Shown here piece after piece: positions 43,964 through 50,161 of a stretch of DNA of 64,000 bases. The stretch's first letter is position 1; every line of letters starts with the position of its first letter. A program made the position numbers and the translations under genes. Source of the stretch: an uncultured Clostridium sp. (GTDB lineage Bacteria > Bacillota > Clostridia > TANB77 > CAG-508); NCBI GenBank assembly GCA_947073285.1, contig CAMTJT010000011.1, forward strand, positions 1,988 to 65,987, given 5' to 3'. The notes under the pieces are model-generated. The model ran no database searches. It saw only the letters and a program-made list of their open reading frames with translations, and had not been told where the DNA came from.

Positions 43964-45733
43964 TTAGCTAAAGTTATAAATTTTGTCATCATTGTAAATG
44001 CGGAATCCCCGTCCGGTAAATTCAAGCTTAGAGCTTTCAGTTACCACATCGCAAGCAAATTCTTTTGCCTTGTTGGTATGGGGATTTACGCCAATGAATT
44101 TTCCGTTTGCAGGATCGTAAATAGTATTTCCATAAAAGCAAATACCAGAAAGAGGAGTTGCATTGTAAGTAAGAACGTCATCATCATACAAAACTTTTTT
44201 GTCTCCAAATACCATGGTTCTATACTTACCATTAGCAAGTTGGTAAACAAACAGCCAGCATTTACTGACAGGATCGTACTTAATTGCATACTCTTTAATC
44301 TTGCCATCATACAAAACTTCAAAGTTATAATGATTAGCATAGATAATTGCTTTTTGGGGATACATTGAGGCAATAAATACTTCTCCATTGTCTGCAATAT
44401 CAAACAAAGGATTATACTGTTTTCCAAATGATTGGGCTACATTTCCTCTGTCTGTAATTGCAAGCTTTATGACATTGCTACCTTTATCCACATAGAAAAA
44501 TTCATTTCCACGAATGGAATAACTTGATTTGAAGTAGCGGTCAATGCTAGAGATAACCTTTCCAGATTTGTCTACAATTTGAGTTTGTTCATCAGTAGAA
44601 ATAAAGGCATATTTGCCATCATCTGAAAAGTCAATCTTTTTGCCATAGCTTAAAGGAATTCCTCTGGTGAGAGAAGGATTCGTAGGCTCAAAGTAAACCA
44701 CTTCGCCATTGGTAGACAAATATTGATGCAAACCCAAAATGAACTTGCAATCTTGTGCTGCAAAGTATACAGAAATACGAGGTCCACCACTGGTGGGCTT
44801 TTGAGCGACTACCACAATAGGTGCAGTAATAACAGTAGCAGTAGTGTTGCAAAGAGGACATTCTTTGTACTTGCCATAATAGTAGATGTCATGCTGCTTA
44901 CAGTACTTCATATTTCCAACCAAATCTCCCAACAAATCTGAAATGTCTACTCTTTTGCCATTTTCAAAAATGTCAATAAAAGTTTGTTCCAAATCAGGGG
45001 ATATCCACTTCCAAGAAGGAATGATTTTGGGAATTTTAATATGTTCTTTTTCTTTTCCCAAAATGGAAATACGGCTTTTCATACGTTCAACAGGACTCAT
45101 GTTAGGAGCCTTATCGTGTACTCCAAAGAACGGATGAATTCTAGTGAGCATATTAAAAGCGAGTACTGCAAAGTTATAGTTTTCACTATCCAAAGAAAAG
45201 CAAATACTGCCATTAGGAGCATAGCTATCAGGGCAAGTAAAAAGTTCTGTGTAAGCATCAGGGGAAAACATTCCTTGTACGCCCCAACTATCCACATCGA
45301 TAAAGAAGGGATTCTTTCCAACAGCTACCAGGTTGTTATCACTAATATCTCCAATAAGAATTCCATTTTCATGAAGACTTTTAATGGAAACACTAGCTTG
45401 CCAAACAAGTTCTGCAATATCTTTATTAGAAAATCCAGAAGTCGCTAAGAACTTTTTCTTGGTAAACTGGTGAAAATCTTCTGCTCCATCAATTCTTTGC
45501 ATAACATAGCCTGCAAACCTACCATTTACCATAAGCATTTGGAGAGGTTTAGCTACATTAGCAGGAAAACGAGCAGTTAAAAACTTTGCTACCTTCTTTT
45601 CTTTGTTTCCAAGGTTCACATTAGGCTTAAATGCTTTAATAACTTCATTGCGACCATGGGCATAGATAATAGCCTCTCCACCCTCTGTAATCTGAGGAAG
45701 AGATTCTAACTGTGAACGACGCATTTCTAACAT
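43964..45733 (-). CDS. atypical Ser/Thr protein kinase-like protein with zinc ribbon and C-terminal repeat (beta-propeller-like) domain; TerY-P triad kinase
   Basis: GGEAIIYA...VIKAF (Gly-loop/Lys), LHENGILIGDISDNNL (degenerate catalytic loop), FFIDVDSWG (DFG-like), CKQH...CPLCN. Resembles E. coli YegI-type kinases. Confidence 0.65.
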   Translation of the reverse strand: MLEMRRSQLESLPQITEGGEAIIYAHGRNEVIKAFKPNVNLGNKEKKVAKFLTARFPANVAKPLQMLMVNGRFAGYVMQRIDGAEDFHQFTKKKFLATSGFSNKDIAELVWQASVSIKSLHENGILIGDISDNNLVAVGKNPFFIDVDSWGVQGMFSPDAYTELFTCPDSYAPNGSICFSLDSENYNFAVLAFNMLTRIHPFFGVHDKAPNMSPVERMKSRISILGKEKEHIKIPKIIPSWKWISPDLEQTFIDIFENGKRVDISDLLGDLVGNMKYCKQHDIYYYGKYKECPLCNTTATVITAPIVVVAQKPTSGGPRISVYFAAQDCKFILGLHQYLSTNGEVVYFEPTNPSLTRGIPLSYGKKIDFSDDGKYAFISTDEQTQIVDKSGKVISSIDRYFKSSYSIRGNEFFYVDKGSNVIKLAITDRGNVAQSFGKQYNPLFDIADNGEVFIASMYPQKAIIYANHYNFEVLYDGKIKEYAIKYDPVSKCWLFVYQLANGKYRTMVFGDKKVLYDDDVLTYNATPLSGICFYGNTIYDPANGKFIGVNPHTNKAKEFACDVVTESSKLEFTGRGFRIYNDDKIYNFS

Positions 45734-45750
45734 GAGATATTACCTCCTCT

Positions 45751-46800
45751 TTAGAAACAAATAGTGACATCATCGCGGAACTTTGCTTGACTACGCTCTT
45801 CTAAGGCCTTAAGCTGCGGAACATGTTTCAAAAATAATTGCCGTTCTTCTTCTGTTTTTAGTTTTTTATAATATCTTTGAAGGTTAAACAGAAGAGTTCT
45901 ATCTTCGTTACAAAGATTAATAATTCGCTCGATTTGACCACTGCTTCCAGCATGCAAACTTCTGGCAAACTTTACTTGATCTTGTTCTGAAAGTTCACTG
46001 TAAAAACGAAGACCATCAGTTGCTACACCCACTACTTGGTAAGCCTTTTTGCTAAAACGGTTAACTGTAAAACCTACTCCTTCTTTATACTCCTTCAAAA
46101 CTTCCTTGTCTTCAATGTAGTTATAAATATAATATTTGGGATACTCTCCATCATCTAATTGCTGGAATGAAATATTTTTTCCATCATCTAAGATAATAAA
46201 GCCATCTCCACAACTTAAAACTACATATTCTGTGTCAGTTTCGAAACAGGCAAGAATGGTAAAACAGTAATTATTGAATAGAAAACTAGGTTCTTTGCTA
46301 ATAACGGTCATTCTTTCGAAAACCTTTTTTACAATTTCTTCAAAGTTTTCTTCTCCAATTGTTTCACCATTTTTCATAAGTTCTGTGCCTTCTTGCATAA
46401 ACAATTGCGTAAAAAGCCTAGAACCCACTTCAGAAGAAGTTCCAGAACCACATCCGTCAAACACAAACTTCATATTAGGCCCACATAGTTTGTAGTCCTG
46501 ATTATTTTTGCCTGCATAAATGTGGTCTGTGCCAATACGAGACAAAGAAATTATTTTGCGTTTAGGACTTTGCGGTACAGTTTCAGTCGAAATAGAAACT
46601 GTGCTTGTTTGTTTAGGTTCATCAGGAATAGTAGCTGTGCCATTCTGTTCAATTGCTGTAGATTCTGTTCCTTGCAAATCAGGAAGAATTACGCTTTGCA
46701 CTGTTGGCTCAACTGTATCTTGGGGTGTTTCAGGAACAAGAATAGAAGTTGTTTTAGGTACTAGATTAGAAACTACCTTTTTAATTTGTTCAAAAGCCAT
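45751..46800 (-). CDS. PP2C-family Ser/Thr phosphatase with Thr/Pro/Gln-rich N-terminal extension
   Basis: GKNNQDY, VFDGCGSGTSSEVGS, LSCGDGFIIL and GVATDGL motifs. Confidence 0.8.
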   Translation of the reverse strand: MAFEQIKKVVSNLVPKTTSILVPETPQDTVEPTVQSVILPDLQGTESTAIEQNGTATIPDEPKQTSTVSISTETVPQSPKRKIISLSRIGTDHIYAGKNNQDYKLCGPNMKFVFDGCGSGTSSEVGSRLFTQLFMQEGTELMKNGETIGEENFEEIVKKVFERMTVISKEPSFLFNNYCFTILACFETDTEYVVLSCGDGFIILDDGKNISFQQLDDGEYPKYYIYNYIEDKEVLKEYKEGVGFTVNRFSKKAYQVVGVATDGLRFYSELSEQDQVKFARSLHAGSSGQIERIINLCNEDRTLLFNLQRYYKKLKTEEERQLFLKHVPQLKALEERSQAKFRDDVTICF

Positions 46801-46899
46801 TAGATGTCCTCCTTATAGTTTGCTAATAATTGTGTAGTAGAATGTATCTTTTAAAGTTAAATGATACAATTCCAAAAACTTCCTTGTTTTAAATGCTAA

Positions 46900-46930
46900 A
46901 CAGGGGAAGGTGCTTTGCACCCTCCCCTGT
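46900..46930. other. GC-rich stem-loop between the vWA and PP2C genes
   Basis: acaggggaaggtg-ctttg-caccctcccctgt: a 13-bp stem with one mismatch and no clear U-run. Confidence 0.6.
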
Positions 46931-48954: not shown

Positions 48955-49109
48955 GCTTTTTTGAAAATTTACAAATTTTAAAAGTGGAATTTACTTTTAT
49001 GCTTAACTAATTAATAAATTTCAAAAAAAGAGAGAGGTAACTAAACAAAAAGTTACACTCCCTCTTTCTTGTTTTCACCTAATGTGAAAGAATCATAATT
49101 GTAAAAATA

Positions 49110-49904
49110 TTAGGCACAATCTAAGAAAATAGGAATTGGCACTAACTTATGATTTGCAAATTTAATTTTGCGTTCAATCATTTGGTTAATCTCTATATTT
49201 CCAGAAGTACCATCCAAAAGGTAATCATCAATTTGTGCATATGTTATGCCAATTTCATCTTCATCAGTCTGCCCCTCCCACAAGCCAGCAGAAGGTTTCT
49301 TTTGAATAATGCTATTTGGAATTTGCAAATAGTTAGCTAAGACATACACTTCTCTTTTGGTAAGCATACCAATAGGATTAAGGTCACAACCGCCATCTCC
49401 CCATTTGGTAAAATAACCAATCATTCTTTCAGAAAGATTTCCTGTACCAATTACAAGAAAATTATTTAATTGTGCATATTCGTACAAATAGGCCATTCTA
49501 ACGCGGGGGCGGATATTAGCCCTTGCAAGGTCTAACTTAAGTTTGTTTCCAACACGACAAGAATCACCAGGAATAGCAAGAGCATCTACAGCGGGTTTGA
49601 TATCATAGGAATGATGCAAAAACTTAAATTTGTTAATAAGCTCCATAGAATGGCTATAACTGCTCGTCTTTTCCATGTCATCGCCATAAGGCATTAAAAC
49701 CAATTCTATATCTACTTGAGCTAATTGGCAAAGCCTTGCTACAACAGAGCAGTCAATCCCACCACTCATACCTAAAACTACACCTTCGCTATGAGTTGCT
49801 TGTACTTGTTGCGAAATCCATGTAGCAATTTTGTCTGCATATTGCTCCACATTTTTGTCAGTAATGACAAAATTCTTTTTTTGCAACTCCAAAATGTTCT
49901 TCAT
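49110..49904 (-). CDS. nadE: NH3-dependent NAD+ synthetase
   Basis: PP-loop GVVLGMSGGIDCSVVA, about 264 aa, NadE-like throughout. A terminator hairpin lies at about 49025-49075. Confidence 0.88.
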   Translation of the reverse strand: MKNILELQKKNFVITDKNVEQYADKIATWISQQVQATHSEGVVLGMSGGIDCSVVARLCQLAQVDIELVLMPYGDDMEKTSSYSHSMELINKFKFLHHSYDIKPAVDALAIPGDSCRVGNKLKLDLARANIRPRVRMAYLYEYAQLNNFLVIGTGNLSERMIGYFTKWGDGGCDLNPIGMLTKREVYVLANYLQIPNSIIQKKPSAGLWEGQTDEDEIGITYAQIDDYLLDGTSGNIEINQMIERKIKFANHKLVPIPIFLDCA

Positions 49905-49987
49905 AGCTATGTTGTCCTCCTTAAATTTTTACAATTTTATAAAATGCGTGTAATCTCAATTGAGTTTACTTTTAGAATTTTTATTGT

Positions 49988-50161
49988 CTAGCGATACTGC
50001 CTTGGAATCTCTTCAATACATTTCCCATTGCTTATTTCAGTAATGTGCCTTTTTTGAAGAAACTGCTTATAAGCATCTCTATCTGCTACTTCCCGTTCAA
50101 TGCCATAGATAATTCGAAAGGTATCACCTACTGGTACTGCATGGATATACTTGATTTTCAC
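49988..50161 (-). CDS. possible 57-aa protein (GTG start) at the right edge of the island
   Basis: AAAGGAG RBS 8 nt upstream of the GTG. It reads KIKYIHAVPVGDTFRIIYGIEREVADRDAYKQFLQKRHITEISNGKCIEEIPRQYR, with the island-like composition and an in-frame CGG. Confidence 0.35.
   Translation of the reverse strand: MKIKYIHAVPVGDTFRIIYGIEREVADRDAYKQFLQKRHITEISNGKCIEEIPRQYR

Follow-up and report, generated by a model that had tools for sequence, protein, structure and literature searches.

In a 64,000-nucleotide stretch of DNA from an uncultured Clostridium sp. (contig CAMTJT010000011.1), which is referred to as the window in what follows, a long-form nicotinamidase-like amidohydrolase, here called NIC, is encoded together with a vWA protein, a PP2C-family phosphatase and a Ser/Thr kinase of the YegI/TerY-P type, and this set of four genes recurs as a cassette in bacterial loci with unrelated flanks and in huge phages. 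We lean towards the view that the cassette recycles nicotinamide as an arm of NAD+ resynthesis, under the control of a phospho-switch of the TerY-P type, and that it is used in phage-host conflict; within this view, we infer the substrate of NIC, the targets of phosphorylation, the signal and the direction of regulation. Triads of the TerY-P/YegI type are widespread and one form of them is anti-phage; what they regulate is a long-standing question. Here, the triad is locked to NIC, an enzyme with a simple and well-understood assay, which gives the switch a likely output and makes the question directly testable.

A conserved four-gene cassette

An earlier note on this DNA had proposed as a test whether homologs of the isochorismatase-like gene ever accompany the triad elsewhere, and they do: starting from the kinase, the order NIC-vWA-PP2C-kinase is present in all 33 loci that have enough upstream DNA, and the genes occur together in 42 non-redundant bacterial loci as well as in large viral genomes. 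The flanks of these 42 loci are unrelated to each other (184 flanking genes fall into 116 clusters), and nadE, which neighbours the cassette in the window, is found in only five of them; in particular, the same three genes, and no nadE, stand behind a 50%-identical NIC homolog seen on hundreds of contigs. What is more, on large viral contigs the set persists at 23-44% identity and in the permuted order PP2C-kinase-NIC-vWA, and the four genes diverge in step with one another. NIC and the triad are not linked by chance.

Gene order is also kept in a Lachnospiraceae metagenome-assembled genome (L130, positions 1845-8653) and in the huge phage LR756511.1 (L240), where some 1-3 kb of extra small open reading frames (ORFs) lie between the genes, and the cassette evidently tolerates such insertions. 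No full-length relative of the kinase was found in the plasmids of PLSDB. A comparison of 107 representative flanking proteins of the 42 loci with PADLOC and Pfam returned mostly housekeeping and few defence-like functions, a result that comes without a control set and from which no enrichment can be claimed. In one Lachnospiraceae lineage (L007-L010, L016, L019), a bpMoxR AAA+ ATPase, a DUF5682 protein and a VWA_CoxE protein lie downstream of the kinase, and a ParB_N and PAPS-reductase/DUF3440 pair lies at a distance upstream of the cassette; these are two further little-understood modules near it.

NIC as a predicted nicotinamidase

The NIC of the window has no Pfam match, not even to PF00857 (Isochorismatase), which a few of its homologs do match. 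Against the NCBIfam PncA model NF008623 it scores E = 2e-7 and 30.9 bits, far below the cut-off of 174, and it finds the nicotinamidases of the PDB at E = 4.5e-5, with 2wt9 and 3pl1 among the matches. Its catalytic triad (D55, K199, C245) and its metal site (D97, H99, H165) are invariant in 22 diverse NIC homologs and in the viral copies. The description in the earlier note of an unusually long nicotinamidase-like enzyme of 313 residues, as compared with the 180-210 of the usual PncA, is thus borne out, with both the PncA triad and the metal site in place. An Asp-His-His metal site sets nicotinamidases apart from other isochorismatase-like hydrolases, and the metal of PncA is coordinated, in solved structures, by the free pyridine nitrogen of nicotinamide. 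Since the ligands of this site are kept in NIC, an unsubstituted pyridine amide is a more plausible substrate than nicotinamide mononucleotide or NAD+.

Proteins of the NIC family have about 300 residues and number in the hundreds, none of them characterised, and relatives occur in at least 396 species (one genome per species was scanned). Annotation of the best 80 loci revealed two kinds of context, one being the cassette. Outside it, Bacillaceae carry NIC-PncB-NadE and NrtR-NIC-PncB-NadD-like operons, and Sphingobacterium and Dysgonomonas have a row of Prs-like, NAMPT-like, NadE, NIC and NrtR genes. NICs inside and outside the cassette are little different from each other, the former being 46-50% and the latter 40-46% identical to that of the window. 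Judging by its conserved residues and these neighbours, we predict NIC to be a salvage-type, metal-dependent nicotinamidase, with nicotinamide as its probable substrate.

The kinase, the phosphatase and the vWA protein

The vWA, PP2C and kinase genes are adjacent and co-oriented in the window and in the related loci. None of them is frame-disrupted, as the earlier note had considered they might be: all three ORFs are intact. The kinase consists of a kinase domain (residues ~1-270), a zinc ribbon (C278, H281, C292, C295) and an all-beta C-terminal domain of about 265 residues (~325-589). It matches Pfam Pkinase weakly and under the cut-off (E = 9e-4), and its profile aligns with E. coli YegI over residues 18-294, the C...CPxC ribbon included (hhalign 99.1%, E = 1e-18). 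Residues G18, G19, E20, K33, D129, N134, D146 and D148 are invariant in one alignment of relatives (A3), and D129 and D146 are nearly so (at least 90%) in another of 39 sequences (A4). The ribbon noticed in the earlier note is confirmed, its four ligands (C-x2-H...C-x2-C) being invariant across the relatives of the kinase. The same note had called the kinase degenerate; with K33, D129, N134, D146 and D148 invariant or nearly so, it is better regarded as atypical. In the AlphaFold2 model (pLDDT 82.9), a protein-kinase fold is followed by the all-beta domain, and Foldseek returns the kinases IRAK4 and ASK1, with LRRK2 as the best match over 653 columns, an alignment that exceeds the length of the kinase domain.

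The phosphatase matches PF13672 (PP2C_2) at E = 1.2e-16 and E. coli PphC by BLASTP at E = 1e-6, and its metal-binding aspartates (D102, D115, D199, D262, D343/D344) are conserved (alignment A6); an N-terminal extension of about 85 residues has no counterpart in most homologs. The vWA protein matches PF00092 just above the threshold (E = 3.2e-5; 24.6 bits vs a cut-off of 23.8), and its metal-ion-dependent adhesion site (MIDAS), D39-x-S41-x-S43...T103...D139, is invariant or nearly so in 18 homologs (A5) and kept in the viral copies. Both the PP2C phosphatase and the DxSxS-containing vWA protein of the earlier note are therefore as described, the latter with its whole motif. The profile searches that it had suggested succeeded for NAD_synthase, PP2C_2 and VWA, gave Pkinase below the cut-off and failed for Pfam Isochorismatase. 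Its assignment of the three genes to the TerY-P triad (YegI/PphC/YegL) stands as far as the homology of the kinase and of the phosphatase is concerned, and is weak for the match of the vWA protein to YegL (BLASTP E = 0.29; hhalign 80.8%, E = 1.3e-5). Altogether, domain content and conserved residues support an intact triad that would be of the TerY-P type. Among the PADLOC models, none matched the vWA protein or the phosphatase at E <= 0.1, and the kinase matched just MkoA at 0.0029; no TerY-P model was hit.

The next most distant kinases of this architecture lie outside the cassette. One stands with transglutaminase-like and patatin genes, and larger relatives of 1,500-1,700 residues are found in TelA-PP2C-...-kinase operons (P0408, P0416, P0425 and about 60 similar ones; L320, 6001-10593). 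These larger proteins end in a full copy of the window-type kinase with its all-beta domain. We considered them as possible fusions of NIC, vWA, PP2C and kinase and rejected this, as their N-terminal parts are repeated degenerate kinase and zinc-ribbon modules. That distant kinases of the same architecture have other partners fits a generic switch with exchangeable outputs.

Copies in huge phages and other viral genomes

The phage copies were overlooked in the earlier note. The curated genome of the huge phage LR756500.1 (462 kb) encodes NadE and a sigma factor, followed by a contiguous NIC-vWA-PP2C-kinase set, and in the above-mentioned LR756511.1 (595 kb) the four genes are spread in the same order among small ORFs. 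In IMG/VR, 101 stretches contain NIC relatives; 78 distinct loci were kept, and all four cassette genes are present in 64 of these. In particular, a 330-kb viral contig (L313) has a contiguous PncB-NadE-PP2C-kinase-NIC-vWA array, a 424-kb contig has NadE followed by PP2C-kinase-NIC-vWA, a 215-kb contig has NadE followed by NIC-vWA-PP2C-kinase, and a 116-kb contig combines NrtR with the cassette. All catalytic residues of the cassette proteins are kept in the viral copies. The flanks on large viral contigs (L239, L285, L286, L288, L313-L315, L318) are phage-like and rich in genes for RNA repair and for NAD+-using enzymes; they encode Tpt1/KptA, NAD-dependent DNA ligase, T4-type RNA ligases, PNK, RlaP, Nudix proteins and a head maturation protease. 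A Ro-like DUF2828 protein with a vWA domain is also seen in these flanks.

NAD and ADP-ribose genes beside the cassette

At least one further NAD or ADP-ribose gene accompanies the cassette in 22 of the 42 bacterial loci. A Prs-like/NAMPT-like pair is the most frequent (10 loci), followed by c32, a predicted ADP-ribosyltransferase (8), nadE (5), pncB (3), NrtR (3) and an ADP-ribosylglycohydrolase (ARH) in a single locus, L014, where ARH and NrtR lie directly upstream of the cassette. The Prs-like/NAMPT-like pair is PF14572 with PF18127 and PF04095, the Pfam signature by which NARP1 (Adps + Namat) was recognised in the study of this pathway, according to which such pairs seldom neighbour bacterial prs genes (10.1101/2024.02.11.579819). 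The Adps/Namat pair is absent from the island of the window. In four loci (L031, L045, L121, L122), a second, short PncA-like gene of about 180 codons lies downstream of the kinase (PF00857 at E = 6e-30 for the copy of L031), and behind it come the Prs-like/NAMPT-like pair in three loci and, in L031, just the Prs-like gene within view; these genomes keep two nicotinamidase-type genes a few kilobases apart.

The NadE of the window is a clear member of its family (PF02540 at E = 2.5e-66 and 223.7 bits; TIGR00552 at 235.5 bits vs a cut-off of 63.65), and it is 57-63% identical to the NadE proteins encoded next to NIC in Sphingobacterium and Dysgonomonas and about 30% identical to those of Bacillaceae. 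The connection between nadE and NIC with its triad, which the earlier note had pointed out, recurs: nadE or pncB stands by the cassette in huge phages, and nadE directly adjoins NIC in Sphingobacterium and Dysgonomonas.

Also unnoticed earlier was c32. Its family, of 296-314 residues and annotated as hypothetical, has no Pfam or PDB sequence match, and R128, S144-x-T146 and E192-x-E194 are invariant in 38 sequences (alignment A2). The AlphaFold2 model has a pLDDT of 93.4, and the top 16 Foldseek matches in the PDB are all ADP-ribosyltransferases, including Vis, C3bot, Plx2A, iota Ia, CDTa, ART2.2, C2-I and SidE, with probabilities of 0.63-1.00, E-values down to 6e-5 and modest TM-scores of 0.3-0.43. 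In several loci c32 lies directly upstream of NIC, at times opposite a divergent pncB-nadE-nadD cluster. Among 22 species with c32, eight have it adjoining the cassette and one has the two on separate contigs, and the others are incomplete metagenome-assembled genomes. No copy was found among the viral contigs of IMG/VR. In the window, a c32 that is 65% identical to the cassette-adjacent copies (tblastn) stands by itself, flanked by murD and a small membrane ORF, in DNA of slightly raised G+C, and shows no signal peptide that would be evident by eye. Fold and motif together suggest that c32 is an ADP-ribosyltransferase and a likely partner of the cassette.

The island in the window

Between pta (42649-43650) and rny (50433-51974), the window has six intact ORFs on the minus strand, spanning 43964-50161 (Table 1), just as the earlier note had it, and its observation of a deviating composition is equally accurate, the G+C content being 0.36-0.45 over 44-49 kb vs 0.25-0.31 in the flanks. 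The host belongs to an uncultured low-G+C lineage of Clostridia, with no species representative whose pta is more than 85% identical to its own. In L160 and L162, the two closest relatives with rny in view, only about 150-250 bp separate this gene from pta and the island is missing, and the cassette is absent from all 80 pta loci. In same-species contigs (L002 and L006, 98-99% identical), the cassette and its promoter are kept, and positions 48984-50430 are swapped for an unrelated 392 bp, so that, by blastn against the window, nadE and the 57-residue ORF are missing together with this segment. These contigs also have an extra 297 bp (6086-6382 in L002) with an 80-residue ORF between the kinase terminator and pta; this second indel, whose insertion point corresponds to position 43855 of the window, borders the island. 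Because the composition differs, the rny-pta site of relatives is empty and indels occur at the strain level, the proposal of a horizontally acquired island is supported, as is its accessory status in this host.

Table 1. Features of the cassette, of its surroundings and of its unlinked possible partner in the window.
Feature	Position	Strand	Remarks
Hairpin 3' of the kinase stop codon, operon end	43875..43918	-	strong, 20 bp; automatic scan
Ser/Thr kinase, YegI/TerY-P type	43964..45733	-	intact ORF, 589 aa
PP2C-family phosphatase	45751..46800	-	349 aa; PF13672 PP2C_2
vWA protein	46966..47661	-	231 aa; complete MIDAS motif
NIC, long-form nicotinamidase-like amidohydrolase	47806..48747	-	313 aa; first operon gene
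Leader with three hairpins	48748..48925	-	~178 nt; minimum free energy -44.7 kcal/mol, z = -2.5
Putative promoter of the four-gene operon	48926..48954	-	TTGCAT, 17 nt, TGaTATAAT; read by eye
Strain-variable segment (nadE, 57-aa ORF and their signals)	48984..50430	.	blastn of L002, L006 vs window
Hairpin and T-run after nadE, likely terminator between nadE and cassette	49023..49064	-	read by eye
nadE, NH3-dependent NAD+ synthetase	49110..49904	-	264 aa; PF02540, TIGR00552
57-aa ORF upstream of nadE	49988..50161	-	GTG start, good ribosome-binding site
Promoter-like site for 57-aa ORF and nadE	50196..50225	-	TTGACA, 18 nt, TATACT, with TG; 11/12 matches
c32, predicted R-S-ExE mono-ADP-ribosyltransferase	18261..19151	+	296 aa; unlinked possible partner, 25 kb from cassette

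Judging from the positions of promoters and hairpins, NIC, vWA, PP2C and kinase appear to form one operon, and nadE with the 57-residue ORF a separate unit. A GGAGG-type ribosome-binding site precedes each of the four cassette genes. The earlier note had placed NIC and the triad behind one strong promoter: a shared promoter is indeed seen, and its strength needs qualifying, given a perfect and extended -10 element next to a weak -35 element, TTGCAT, which matches the consensus at just 3 of 6 positions and because of which a consensus scan did not list it. This promoter is kept in the strains without nadE, homology picking up again at 48983. The hairpin and T-run after nadE were likewise not picked up by the automatic scan. 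The 57-residue ORF has no Pfam match and is called as a gene on another contig (L005). As to the leader, which is about 75% identical in L012, we considered a riboswitch or another known RNA: Rfam gave nothing at gathering scores and chance-level matches at relaxed E-values, and the fold is unremarkable by its z-score, so that a riboswitch is not supported.

The DNA upstream of NIC (48926-48990) is conserved in 23 loci (L012, L015, L017, L022-L037, L102-L150), though the proteins are just about 50% identical, and the promoter of the window aligns with a promoter-like block in these loci. Conserved boxes stand ahead of the -35 element (TTTACAT) and directly past the -10 element (ATGTCAA), and about 100 nt further downstream most of the 23 loci have the palindrome GTCAATTGAC, at a place where hairpins stand in the window. 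Known NAD operators were considered here and discarded, the spacings GT-N6-AC and TGT-N6-ACA fitting neither of the published cores (GT-N7-AC for NrtR, TGT-N4/5-ACA for NiaR). The longer intergenic gaps within the operon, 46801-46965 and 47662-47805, also contain hairpins, for example a G+C-rich stem at ~46893-46925 followed by TTTAGCATTT. Such hairpins could act in attenuation or transcript stabilisation and thus set separate levels for NIC, vWA and PP2C/kinase.

Proposed function and alternatives

How might such a cassette work? NIC would convert nicotinamide, released by NAD+ consumers such as ADP-ribosyltransferases, NADases, sirtuins and Tpt1, into nicotinate and ammonia. The nicotinate would feed the Preiss-Handler route (PncB, NadD, NadE), by which NAD+ is rebuilt, and the removal of nicotinamide would also relieve the product inhibition of NAD+ consumers. 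The kinase may sense a signal via its zinc ribbon and all-beta C-terminal domain and phosphorylate the vWA protein, NIC or both, with the MIDAS site of the vWA protein binding a partner and the phosphatase resetting the state. Nicotinamide clearance and NAD+ resynthesis would in this way be switched on under one condition, most plausibly NAD+ depletion or ADP-ribosylation in phage-host or inter-bacterial conflict. In huge phages, the cassette with nadE or pncB presumably keeps NAD+ available; in bacteria, it might act alongside NAD+ consumers such as c32, or after an attack on the NAD+ pool. A bolder form of this proposal, which we put forward only tentatively, is that of a so far unrecognised, signal-gated NAD+ recycling system common to huge phages and gut bacteria, a deamidating counterpart of NARP1-3 in which NIC would be switched by Ser/Thr phosphorylation upon NAD+ cleavage or ADP-ribosylation, and whose partners in one bacterial clade would be cytoplasmic ADP-ribosyltransferases of a new family.

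That said, several observations weigh against NAD+ recycling as the role of the cassette. The NIC family has a 45-residue N-terminal extension and an insertion of about 50 residues between the metal ligands and stays under the curated Pfam and NCBIfam cut-offs, and on both counts its substrate could differ. In 20 of the 42 loci there is no other NAD gene within view, and in the species of the window nadE is strain-variable and transcribed as its own unit. Many of the "viral" contigs come from a single metagenome (3300045988) and may be host DNA or proviruses; we therefore rely on the large contigs, and only the huge-phage cases are solid. Finally, a related triad is reported as anti-phage defence (PMC11090510), which would place the system on the side of the host and not of the phage.

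This last point leads to the main rival, namely host anti-phage defence of the TerY-P kind, in which the triad senses infection and either NIC destroys nicotinamide, so that NAD+ reconstitution by the phage fails, or c32 modifies a target and NIC clears the inhibitory product. The triad is homologous to YegI/PphC, a TerY-P-like module is reported as a stand-alone defence (PMC11090510), and NARP1 and NARP2 need nicotinamide (10.1101/2024.02.11.579819); moreover, the cassette is an acquired island of patchy distribution, c32 adjoins it in eight loci, and recombinases, a DNA methylase or MoxR-vWA systems lie near some of them. We nevertheless consider host defence unlikely, given that no PADLOC TerY-P model matches the triad proteins, that the flanks of the 42 loci are mostly housekeeping with few defence matches, and that NIC orthologs sit in ordinary salvage operons. 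What is more, 10 of the 42 loci carry the NARP1-like pair, which uses nicotinamide to make NAD+, and in huge phages the cassette lies beside nadE/pncB and NAD+-dependent repair enzymes, which fits the supply of NAD+ better than its denial. The role could also be purely metabolic, the triad being a nutrient or redox sensor that tunes niacin salvage in NAD-auxotrophic gut Clostridia and the phage copies being ordinary auxiliary metabolic genes. NIC orthologs in NrtR-linked salvage operons, NrtR as a neighbour of three bacterial cassettes and of one on a viral contig, the housekeeping flanks and the Preiss-Handler clusters already known in gut jumbo phages (PMC11662467) all agree with this. Still, we give it slightly less credence than host defence: the cassette is an accessory, laterally transferred unit that the nearest relatives lack and whose G+C is unlike that of the host; it associates with a predicted ADP-ribosyltransferase, ARH and NARP1-like pairs, that is, with the recycling of NAD+ cleavage products and not of dietary niacin; and related triads have ties to conflict systems.

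The two remaining alternatives concern the enzyme itself and its linkage. Enzymes of the isochorismatase superfamily have diverse substrates, and NIC, with its large extensions relative to PncA, its failure to match Pfam Isochorismatase and its low NCBIfam PncA score (30.9 bits vs 174), might act not on free nicotinamide but on another amide, such as a nucleotide-derived signal or a protein or peptide presented by the vWA protein, the NAD neighbours then representing different chemistry. We regard this as improbable: the D-K-C triad and the three metal ligands of true nicotinamidases are invariant, the binding of the free pyridine nitrogen by the PncA metal, which is textbook knowledge, argues for an unsubstituted pyridine amide, and the operon partners of the NIC family are exactly the next Preiss-Handler enzymes. 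As for the adjacency of NIC and the triad being a chance insertion without functional meaning, the one point in its favour is that nadE is a separable, strain-variable neighbour. The neighbourhood survey effectively refutes it and leaves it with hardly any probability: the linkage holds in 33 of 33 kinase loci and across 42 non-redundant loci whose flanks are unrelated, phages retain the set, a permuted order occurs as well, and the four genes diverge together.

What would a signal-gated NAD+ recycling system mean? If it is real, it would provide the first defined biochemical output for a triad of the TerY-P/YegI type. Depletion of NAD+ is among the major immune strategies of bacteria, to which phages respond with NAD+ reconstitution pathways; a regulated nicotinamide-deamidating arm in huge phages and gut Clostridia would add a new layer to this contest, and so would the neighbours that the cassette has in many loci (NARP1-like genes, NrtR and the new predicted ADP-ribosyltransferase). 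Even if the cassette merely tunes niacin salvage, it would still be the first case known to us in which genes of Ser/Thr phospho-signalling are fixed to an enzyme of bacterial NAD salvage.

Relation to known systems

The TerY-P triad was reportedly described by Anantharaman, Iyer and Aravind in 2012, with E. coli YegL-PphC-YegI as an example. The cassette shares with it a MIDAS-containing vWA protein, a PP2C phosphatase and a eukaryote-like Ser/Thr kinase followed by a zinc ribbon, encoded next to each other on one strand, and distant kinases with the C-terminal domain of the cassette kinase occur in TelA-PP2C-kinase operons. It differs in the nicotinamidase-like fixed fourth gene, in the extra all-beta kinase domain of about 265 residues and in a vWA protein that resembles YegL weakly. 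In the accessible papers, the partners described for TerY-P are DNA-processing and restriction modules, McrBC/CoCoNuT, WXG/FtsK secretion and Ter genes, not NAD salvage (PMC11090510 for part of these). The statement of the earlier note that the role of the triad is still unknown is outdated, in that a TerY-P-like system acts as a stand-alone anti-phage defence according to Gao et al. 2020, as cited in PMC11090510. The system of Gao et al., included in PADLOC and DefenseFinder, likewise has the three domain types in one operon. It contains no nicotinamidase; the triad of the window has no TerY-P match in PADLOC, and the cassette is also phage-borne.

Among NAD systems, the closest is the PncA/Preiss-Handler pathway (PncA-PncB-NadD-NadE, regulated by NrtR or NiaR), whose nicotinamidase has the same catalytic triad and metal ligands and whose pncA is replaced by the NIC family beside pncB, nadD, nadE and nrtR, as in the classical arrangements (PMC2330246). 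NIC differs from PncA in having about 300 residues instead of 180-210, in falling under the curated Pfam and NCBIfam thresholds and, in Clostridia and phages, in being locked to the kinase/phosphatase/vWA trio, a coupling of which no report exists for PncA. Phage NAD+ reconstitution is known in the form of NARP1 (Adps + Namat), NARP2 (Nampt + Nmnat) and NARP3 (PnuC + an NadR-like protein), and gut jumbo phages carry pncB-nadD-nadE clusters and pncA (PMC11662467). Like the cassette, these are gene sets of phages or mobile elements that rebuild NAD+ from breakdown products, and NARP1-like pairs adjoin the cassette in 10 of the 42 loci; unlike them, the cassette would use the deamidating step from nicotinamide to nicotinate, is not a complete pathway alone and always comes with the signalling triad, which is unmentioned in those papers. 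Finally, Iyer et al. 2022 (PMC9503650) described systems that are built around ARG and regulated by NrtR or WYL proteins, with a predicted role against viral ADP-ribosylation. These are also NAD/ADP-ribose conflict operons and may hold an NrtR-like regulator, a phosphatase and a vWA "chaperone", and one cassette locus (L014) has ARH and NrtR; their core, however, consists of an ADP-ribosylglycohydrolase and rhodanese-type phosphatases, with no kinase, PP2C or nicotinamidase. Full-text literature searches, with the founding 2012 paper outside their reach, found no description of a nicotinamidase fixed to a TerY-P-type triad. A nicotinamidase as the fixed fourth member of the triad would be new; TerY-P triads, phage NARP1-3, the Preiss-Handler clusters of jumbo phages and NrtR-regulated ADP-ribose systems are already described.

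Other observations in the window

The gene uvrA appears to be split, in that an 844-residue ORF at 12599-15133 on the plus strand overlaps a 129-residue ORF at 15036-15425 in another frame, with the C-terminal ATPase part encoded by the latter; the cause is a frameshift or else an error of assembly. At ~35000-38000, GC skew and gene orientation flip, with plus-strand genes and positive skew on the left and minus-strand genes and negative skew on the right. A peak of cumulative skew at this position is what one would expect of a replication terminus, or possibly an origin.

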